From the NCBI RefSeq assembly GCF_018977255.1, contig NW_024704752.1, forward strand, positions 7,750,001-7,814,000: 64,000 bases of DNA. The letters are read 5' to 3'. Under the pieces are notes generated by a model, which saw only the letters and a list, made by a program, of their open reading frames with translations, was not told where the DNA came from and searched no databases. Below are positions 4,628 to 6,024 of the stretch, in pieces (position 1 is the first letter of the stretch; every line of letters begins with the position of its first letter). Origin of the DNA: Callorhinchus milii. Its lineage: Eukaryota. The translations under genes were made by a program, and so were the position numbers.

Positions 4628-4914
4628 GTCTAGCTGGCTCTTGTTTGCCAATGTTCAGTACAATGCCATTTGCGTATTGCACCACTGATGACGTTTGTCA
4701 CTATGCCAATAGAAATGACAAATCCTATTGGTTGTCTACCACCGCACCTATGCCCAGGAAGCCACTCATTGATCGAGAGATAGAGCCTTACATCAGCAGA
4801 TGTTCAGTGTGTGAGGCATCTTCTGTTGCAGTGGCTGTCCATAGCCAGGATGAGACCATTCCTTTATGTCCATCAAGATGGAGAAGTCTTTGGGCCGGAT
4901 ACTCTTTCTTCATG
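4628..4914 (+). CDS. COL4A4: Collagen type IV alpha-4 chain, NC1 domain exon
   Basis: ctcccag| ... CATG|gtgagc; 287 nt; [18 protein letters not shown]...[14 protein letters not shown]...[12 protein letters not shown]. Confidence 0.96.
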
Positions 4915-5324
4915 GTGAGCAGAATTTTATTAAGAACTTAAGAATTTGCTAGGTGAAAGAAGACCAAGGCCCATCTAGTTCACCTTCCACCATCCTGGCA
5001 GTCGCTGGGCATTTTGTTAACTTATTATTCATTAGTTTATTCACTGGCTTGCTATTTGTGGTCATAATCATGCTTGCACTAATTCATGTTGACTTACAGA
5101 TCCATGGGGGCAAAGTACTGGAATCTATCAATGAGCACTGTGGAAAAATCTCTTTTCCACAGTATACATTTCTGTTCTTGGTTGATTGTCTCTGGTATTC
5201 ACTGAACAGAAACAAAGCATTTTTTCCTCATGAGGAAGTGAAATTGGAGGCCGAGTTGTTCTGCTCACCATATTGCACCTCTAGGGGGCTAGTTCATCAA
5301 TGAGTGTGACTTGATTGGAACTTT

Positions 5325-5548
5325 ATCCCACAGTCCCTTTGCCTTGCTTCCTCCCTTTACGTCCTTCAAGACCCTCCTTTTCGATTGCACCTTTGGTCAC
5401 CATCCTATCTCTACCCTCACTGCCCTCCACCCCTCCTGATCCCAGCCTCTAGCTTGGGCCCAAATTCCTGACTGTCCAGCGCCTTGGGACATCTTCCCGA
5501 CATGAAAGGGCTGTGTAAATGTGATTTTGTATTTTGAATTGTTGTTGT
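5325..5548 (+). mobile_element. L2-clade LINE 3' end in last COL4A4 intron
   Basis: ccttcaagaccctcctttt...gtccagcgccttgggacatcttcccgacatgaaagg...ttgttgttg. Confidence 0.75.
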
Positions 5549-5748
5549 GTCCTGAAAACTTGTTTCCTGTCCACTTCCTTTTTTCTTGATTGGGAAATGA
5601 GATAATGGTATTGTGAAACTCTCCAAAAATTGGAGATGATGGATGGTGGATTCCATCTCAAAGAAAAGGGCAGCAAAGAGTACATGTAGGAAATGTTAAG
5701 CATTTAAATTCCCAGTTCAGAGGATTGAATGTCATCTTCCCATTGTAG

Positions 5749-6024
5749 CACACAGGAGCAGGCACCGGAGGAGGAGGTCAATCTCTGATGTCACCTGGGA
5801 GCTGCCTGGAGGATTTCCACTCACTACCATTTATCGAGTGCCAGGGAGCTCAGGGCACTTGCCACTTCTTTGCCAACAAGTATAGCTTCTGGCTAGCAAT
5901 AGTGCGATCAAACGAGCAGTTTAGTAATCCTGCCTTTTCAGAGACTCTTAGCATGGAACAAAGAGGGAGAATCAGTCGGTGTCGAGTCTGCATAAGGAAT
6001 GAATGTGAGAAAGAGGAGTGTTAA
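5749..6024 (+). CDS. COL4A4: Collagen type IV alpha-4 chain, terminal coding exon (NC1 C-terminus, stop TAA)
   Basis: ttgtag|[32 protein letters not shown]...[19 protein letters not shown]...ISRCRVC. Tail-to-tail position next to RHBDD1 matches human COL4A4 synteny. Confidence 0.95.

Follow-up and report, generated by a model that had tools for sequence, protein, structure and literature searches.

Likely loss of the sulfilimine residues Met93 and Lys211 from the COL4A4 NC1 domain of the chimaera Callorhinchus milii

The two residues joined by the sulfilimine cross-link between facing NC1 domains, Met93 and Lys211, are both gone from the alpha-4 chain (COL4A4) of the chimaera Callorhinchus milii, where arginine stands in column 93 and serine in column 211. 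The likely explanation, to which we give a probability of about 85%, is that the pair was plainly lost under relaxed selection. The gene lies in a 64,000-nucleotide stretch of contig NW_024704752.1 (assembly GCF_018977255.1, positions 7,750,001 to 7,814,000), here called the window. A first-pass annotation, made from the letters alone, had already reported the pair as missing, and had offered two readings: a simple loss, or a reciprocal swap in which a new lysine and a neighbouring methionine rebuild the bond with inverted polarity. It is the simple loss that fits the data, with alpha-4 chains losing these residues again and again, and with no co-variation between the two newcomers.

The changed Met93 loop reads PMPRKP, with codons for Pro at 4747, Met at 4750, Pro at 4753, Arg (AGG) at 4756, Lys (AAG) at 4759 and Pro at 4762. 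The annotation had these letters right but placed them slightly too far downstream: the loop starts at 4747, and 4750–4764 encodes MPRKP. Judging from alignment and conservation, the Arg (4756–4758, plus strand, like the other COL4A4 codons of the window) falls in the Met93 column, that of the leading Met in the Met-Met pair of even chains, while the Lys (4759–4761) occupies column 94, that of the second. Both AGG and AAG are one base away from ATG, and most of the altered codons of this chain are single-base steps from the old ones. At the other site, 5941–5955 does encode ETLSM as described, with Ser (AGC, 5950–5952) in the Lys211 column and Met (ATG, 5953–5955) in column 212. The alignment places a two-residue deletion just after column 212, and the spacer to the ISRC motif, rightly said to be shortened, is 7 residues long here, while human and shark alpha-4 have 9 and alpha-2 has 8.

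Column numbers were taken from alpha-1, which on a PDB alignment has Met93 followed by Ala94 and Pro95. MAFFT aligns the first Met of the even-chain pair with column 93; phmmer places the gap differently, so that this correspondence is one that we infer, and it fits the better retention of the first Met (36/49 alpha-4 rows) compared with the second (23/49). Our literature search found no paper naming the bonded Met of the alpha-2 or alpha-4 pair. If it is the second, then the new Lys stands exactly on the Met site, but whichever assignment is used, chimaera alpha-4 has no Met in column 93 or 94. [quoted passage not shown]

The window holds the last five exons of COL4A4 on the plus strand, all with AG/GT ends, the 5′ part of the gene lying outside. 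Two collagenous exons, the first with Gly-X-Y repeats (2248–2382 and 2931–3044), are followed by an exon that combines the end of the triple helix with the start of NC1 (3571–3756), by the middle NC1 exon containing the Met93 loop (4628–4914), and by the coding part of the last exon up to the stop codon (5749–6024). All five are joined at GT..AG sites in contigs of runs X5, X6 and X7, presumed to be RNA; no matching run was on record as such. Short high-copy repeats with very high read depth occur nearby, at 4930–5010 and 5290–5530, both in the last intron, and at 6050–6115 just past the stop codon. Translated, the two NC1 exons match UniRef entry P0004, which its source names Callorhinchus milii, with 100% identity, and Pfam finds Collagen and two C4 domains in this protein, as a collagen IV alpha-4 chain should have. 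The P0004 gene model has only 457 residues and apparently includes intron-derived stretches; its last residue is Thr, at a place for which the window and the spliced contigs give Cys followed by a stop.

The assignment of the gene to COL4A4 is upheld by both phylogeny and synteny. A FastTree phylogeny was built from the 183 NC1 sequences that cover both sites, out of 217 stored proteins (34 left out). It places P0004 inside the alpha-4 clade (support 0.98) rather than with alpha-2 or alpha-6, and as sister to the elasmobranch sequences (support 0.99). Scores of single exons are split, the middle exon scoring best against alpha-2 and the last exon against alpha-4, and several shark and ray alpha-4 proteins carry alpha-2-like database names. 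An alpha-2 identity, as suggested by several such names, was rejected since tree and synteny disagree with it. The NC1 genes of this genome form three pairs, located on C4, C15 and C11. Separate alpha-2-like and alpha-6-like genes are present on C4 and C15, which were taken as the 1/2 and 5/6 pairs from the likeness of their even chains. COL4A4 itself stands head-to-head with an odd-chain NC1 gene, COL4A3, which lies some 100 kb upstream on the minus strand. Downstream come a rhomboid-family exon in the position of RHBDD1 (31061–31330, minus strand) and a long open reading frame with an IRS-type PTB domain in the position of IRS1 (56679–59924, plus strand), both typed to family level; the order COL4A4-RHBDD1-IRS1 is given in a passage of PMC12141075. 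Elsewhere in the window, six-frame translations reveal a G-rich tandem repeat array at about 37200–38900.

Could the unusual residues be a product of sequencing or assembly, or belong to a dead gene? Six runs labelled as the same species and coming from three studies (X1, X5, X6, X7, X2 and X3, one of which may itself have supplied the window sequence) were compared with the window. None of the six differs at 4747–4764 or at 5953–5955, and Lys at column 211 is found in 0/6. All six thus agree with the window in the loop and at Met212, and none has the canonical residues, contrary to the sequence error that the annotation had kept in reserve. Nothing in this species speaks for an error at these sites; the one hint is that, in the nearby IRS gene (about 56680–57410), the PH and PTB domains lie in different frames (ORFs from 56315 and 56679), a break likely due to an assembly indel between about 56950 and 57130. 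Agreement at both sites across six runs and three studies refutes an error unless all runs derive from one sample, and the open frame, the spliced contigs and a model that matches solved NC1 domains count against error and dead gene alike. We therefore give this explanation practically no credence. For the model, a single-sequence fold of P0004 was unusable (pLDDT 34.9) and a monomer model from a 96-row alignment was used instead; over the NC1 core its block pLDDT is 79–97, and the predicted fold resembles solved NC1 domains with a TM-score of about 0.9 by target length.

The only variation found at the two sites among these runs is in X7, where a G>A change at 5951 replaces Ser by Asn at column 211. 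This run carries a second haplotype of the last exon, with differences at 5899 (Ile to Val), 5913 (silent) and 5951 (Ser to Asn). The Asn codon AAC is one base from a Lys codon and one from Ser AGC; single-base codon steps and a Ser/Asn variation at column 211 are what would be expected of drift at freed sites. Beyond this species, run X14 from organism B has 34 listed differences within the middle exon (285 bases), of which 22 fall at third codon positions, and from this pattern together with shared intron repeats organism B appears to be a related chimaera. Its columns 93/94 are Glu-Arg, as read by hand from the difference table of one contig, which also has a four-letter insertion behind 4770 that would shift the frame; this contig may be faulty, or COL4A4 may be damaged in organism B. 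For organism C (X15), two short pieces of one contig were all that aligned, and the protein database searches, which covered longer proteins only, returned no further chimaera protein.

How unusual is such a loss? Comparison proteins were all gathered by searches with one query, and the rows are related cluster representatives, often automatic predictions, so that the figures which follow are counts and not independent events. Met93 or Lys211 is missing in 16/49 alpha-4 rows against 0/42 for alpha-2 and 0/42 for alpha-6, and a Fisher test (p about 2e-8) is given no weight since the rows are related. Both residues are kept in 33/49 alpha-4, 42/42 alpha-2, 42/42 alpha-6, 6/8 alpha-3 and 3/3 alpha-1/5 rows; with a Met in column 94 allowed instead, alpha-4 has 14/49 losses and 35/49 keepers. 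Besides the chimaera, the alpha-4 losses include Hypanus (a stingray), two Oryzias (medaka), Arctogadus, Polymixia, Latimeria (coelacanth), Erpetoichthys (reedfish) and passerines. Among 19 further mammal-like alpha-4 cluster members in which the loop is present, five have no Met in column 93. Eight mammal-like alpha-4 proteins (P0144, P0146, P0148, P0219, P0225, P0226, P0238 and P0240) have Thr, Val or Leu at 93 and keep Lys211. Two fish alpha-3 proteins, P0206 and P0197, one of them named Pundamilia, have neither Met93 nor Lys211, and have His in what counts as the Arg76 column; at the level of these sequences, loss at the alpha-3 interface is thus recurrent too. The sulfilimine has been presented as conserved across animals on the basis of alpha-1/alpha-2 alignments (an excerpt of PMC13098435). 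Our alignment suggests that this conservation holds for alpha-2 and alpha-6 (84/84), while alpha-4 drops the residues repeatedly, birds and mammal-like chains included. The amphibians have gone further, the COL4A3/4 pair having been lost outright according to a passage of PMC12141075. With a length of 0.49 against an alpha-4 mean of 0.51, the chimaera NC1 branch is not unusually long, which indicates that the relaxation is local and not gene-wide.

Six of the seven elasmobranchs of the sister clade (Heptranchias, Carcharodon, Pristiophorus, Leucoraja, Rhinoraja, Narcine and Hypanus) keep Met93 and Lys211, and only Hypanus has, like the chimaera, lost both. Heptranchias resembles the chimaera in another respect, with a Met212 that stands alongside an intact Met-Met pair and Lys211. 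Of the remaining elasmobranchs, 5/6 carry Ile or Thr in column 212, each one base from ATG, and by parsimony cartilaginous fishes probably had Met212 ancestrally.

These comparisons bear directly on the proposed swap, in which Lys94 of one alpha-4 would bond to Met212 of the facing alpha-4, a pre-existing Met212 having let the new Lys assume the role while the old pair was still intact. Some observations go in this direction: Lys94 and Met212 are fixed in 6/6 same-species runs, both sit one column past the canonical sites, and two alpha-4 chains face each other in the mammalian glomerular basement membrane (PMC8093946). Finding both residues in one chain would naively be expected in about 0.08 of 49 rows, a low figure which is however post hoc and uncorrected. 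The genome also has, at three loci, peroxidase genes with a single large catalytic exon, which are candidate peroxidasin genes. The co-variation that the annotation itself proposed as a test is nevertheless absent. Lys in columns 93/94 is found in 2/49 alpha-4 rows (chimaera and Hypanus) and Met in columns 211/212 in 2/49 (chimaera and Heptranchias), so that loop Lys and Met coincide in 1/49 and occur apart in two others: Hypanus has Lys in column 93 with Thr at 211 and lacks a Met in the vicinity, and Heptranchias has its Met212 without any loop Lys. In the one contig of organism B, the place of the loop Lys is held by Arg. Structure is of little help to the swap either, as Met212 is predicted to be the first residue of a helix in the monomer model, with the sulfilimine placed on the outer strand in an excerpt of PMC13098435, and no placement of the two-residue deletion brings a Met to column 211. 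Lastly, an inverted bond leaves the loss of Met93 in alpha-3 and the losses of Arg179, described below, without explanation. We consider it very unlikely. Among the best-ranked literature matches there was no inverted sulfilimine and no paper on chimaera chains, and earlier primary work on the sulfilimine may already note exceptions in alpha-4 or in chimaeras. If true, and the evidence is weak, the inverted bond would be the first natural rewiring of the sulfilimine cross-link, achieved through an old Met212, and would mean that local geometry is all that the chemistry requires.

In the assembly, the partner chain alpha-3 of this genome (COL4A3 NC1, C11 at about 7,648,500, minus strand) has Ile (ATA) where Met93 would stand and Ser at the place of Arg179, and keeps Lys211, while alpha-1 and alpha-2 as well as alpha-5 and alpha-6 keep Met93, Arg179 and Lys211. 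Arg179 binds the chloride of the opposing trimer, according to a passage of PMC4878091. Its column is Arg in 46/49 and Lys in 2/49 alpha-4 rows, and the chimaera has His (5818–5820). The other chloride-switch positions of chimaera alpha-4, namely Arg76, Asp78, Glu175 and the Asn187 column, are kept.

How many cross-links would then remain depends on which chains meet. A mammal-type alpha-345 hexamer would have 2 of 6 bonds here, those from alpha-5 Met93 to alpha-3 Lys211, and an alpha-3/alpha-4 hexamer free of alpha-5 would presumably have zero. The annotation had assumed the former, and this premise is doubtful in cartilaginous fish, because alpha-4 and alpha-5 of nurse shark kidney are described as belonging to separate hexamers (an excerpt of PMC10746531).

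A second way of compensating for the missing bond would be its replacement by disulfides between chains or protomers, made by the C-terminal tail and by two Cys just before NC1 (3576–3578 and 3612–3614). The tail (5998–6021, with no difference listed in X5, X6 and X7) carries two extra Cys, at 6004 and 6019; among the stored proteins tested for this pattern, the chimaera chain and one falcon alpha-4 are the only ones with a Cys beyond the last that is conserved. Passages of two papers lend themselves to this idea, the one reporting that alpha-3/alpha-4 networks gain Cys for lateral links (PMC12141075), and the other a zebrafish alpha-4 that combines the loss of M93 and K211 with an extra Cys (10.1101/2022.08.14.503918). 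The C-terminus, however, is located at the apex of the NC1 monomer and not near the face where the trimers meet, as a passage of PMC8100070 on the human alpha-3 appendage indicates; the tail Cys could pair within the chain, and such a tail is absent from other alpha-4 chains in which the residues are gone. Replacement by disulfides seems unlikely to us.

Plain loss is thus the preferred reading, and its course can be outlined. Relaxed selection on the trimer-trimer interface of alpha-3 and alpha-4 would have allowed Met93 and Lys211 to disappear, and an alpha-4 chain with neither would make no sulfilimine bond of its own. Lys94 likely arose from the freed Met codon by one-base drift, and Met212 is likely older than the loss. 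With its predicted NC1 fold and with Arg76, Asp78 and Glu175 retained, the chimaera chain would still assemble into hexamers non-covalently. Such a loss appears structurally tolerable, since human alpha-345 hexamers devoid of cross-links were assembled by chloride alone (an excerpt of PMC8099640).

Compared with the mammalian alpha-345 hexamer (PDB 6WKU; human alpha-4 NC1, PDB 5NB1), the chimaera has an orthologous alpha-4 with the NC1 fold and with Arg76, Asp78 and Glu175 in common, but it differs by the absence of Met93, Lys211 and Arg179, by the two-residue deletion after 212, and by the Cys tail. A nearer parallel is the zebrafish, whose alpha-4 NC1 is described in a passage of LeBleu et al. 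(10.1101/2022.08.14.503918) as devoid of M93 and K211, with no covalent C-terminal link predicted. As far as that source goes, the likeness covers the chain, the two residues lost, the intact state of alpha-1 and alpha-2 as well as of alpha-5 and alpha-6, and a gain of Cys. The differences are that M93 and K211 are retained in zebrafish alpha-3 while chimaera alpha-3 has no Met93, that both chimaera chains are without Arg179, and that the extra Cys lies inside NC1 in the zebrafish and in the C-terminal tail in the chimaera. The chimaera loss is independent of that of the zebrafish, for the pair persists in most sharks and rays as well as in many teleosts. Loss in alpha-4 being already known from the zebrafish, the chimaera is a new case, to which are added here the losses of Met93 in alpha-3 and of Arg179. 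It would offer a natural test of an alpha-3/alpha-4 scaffold with few or no sulfilimines, and it bears on how COL4A4 variants at these positions are read, as well as on the time at which the cross-linked alpha-345 scaffold originated.
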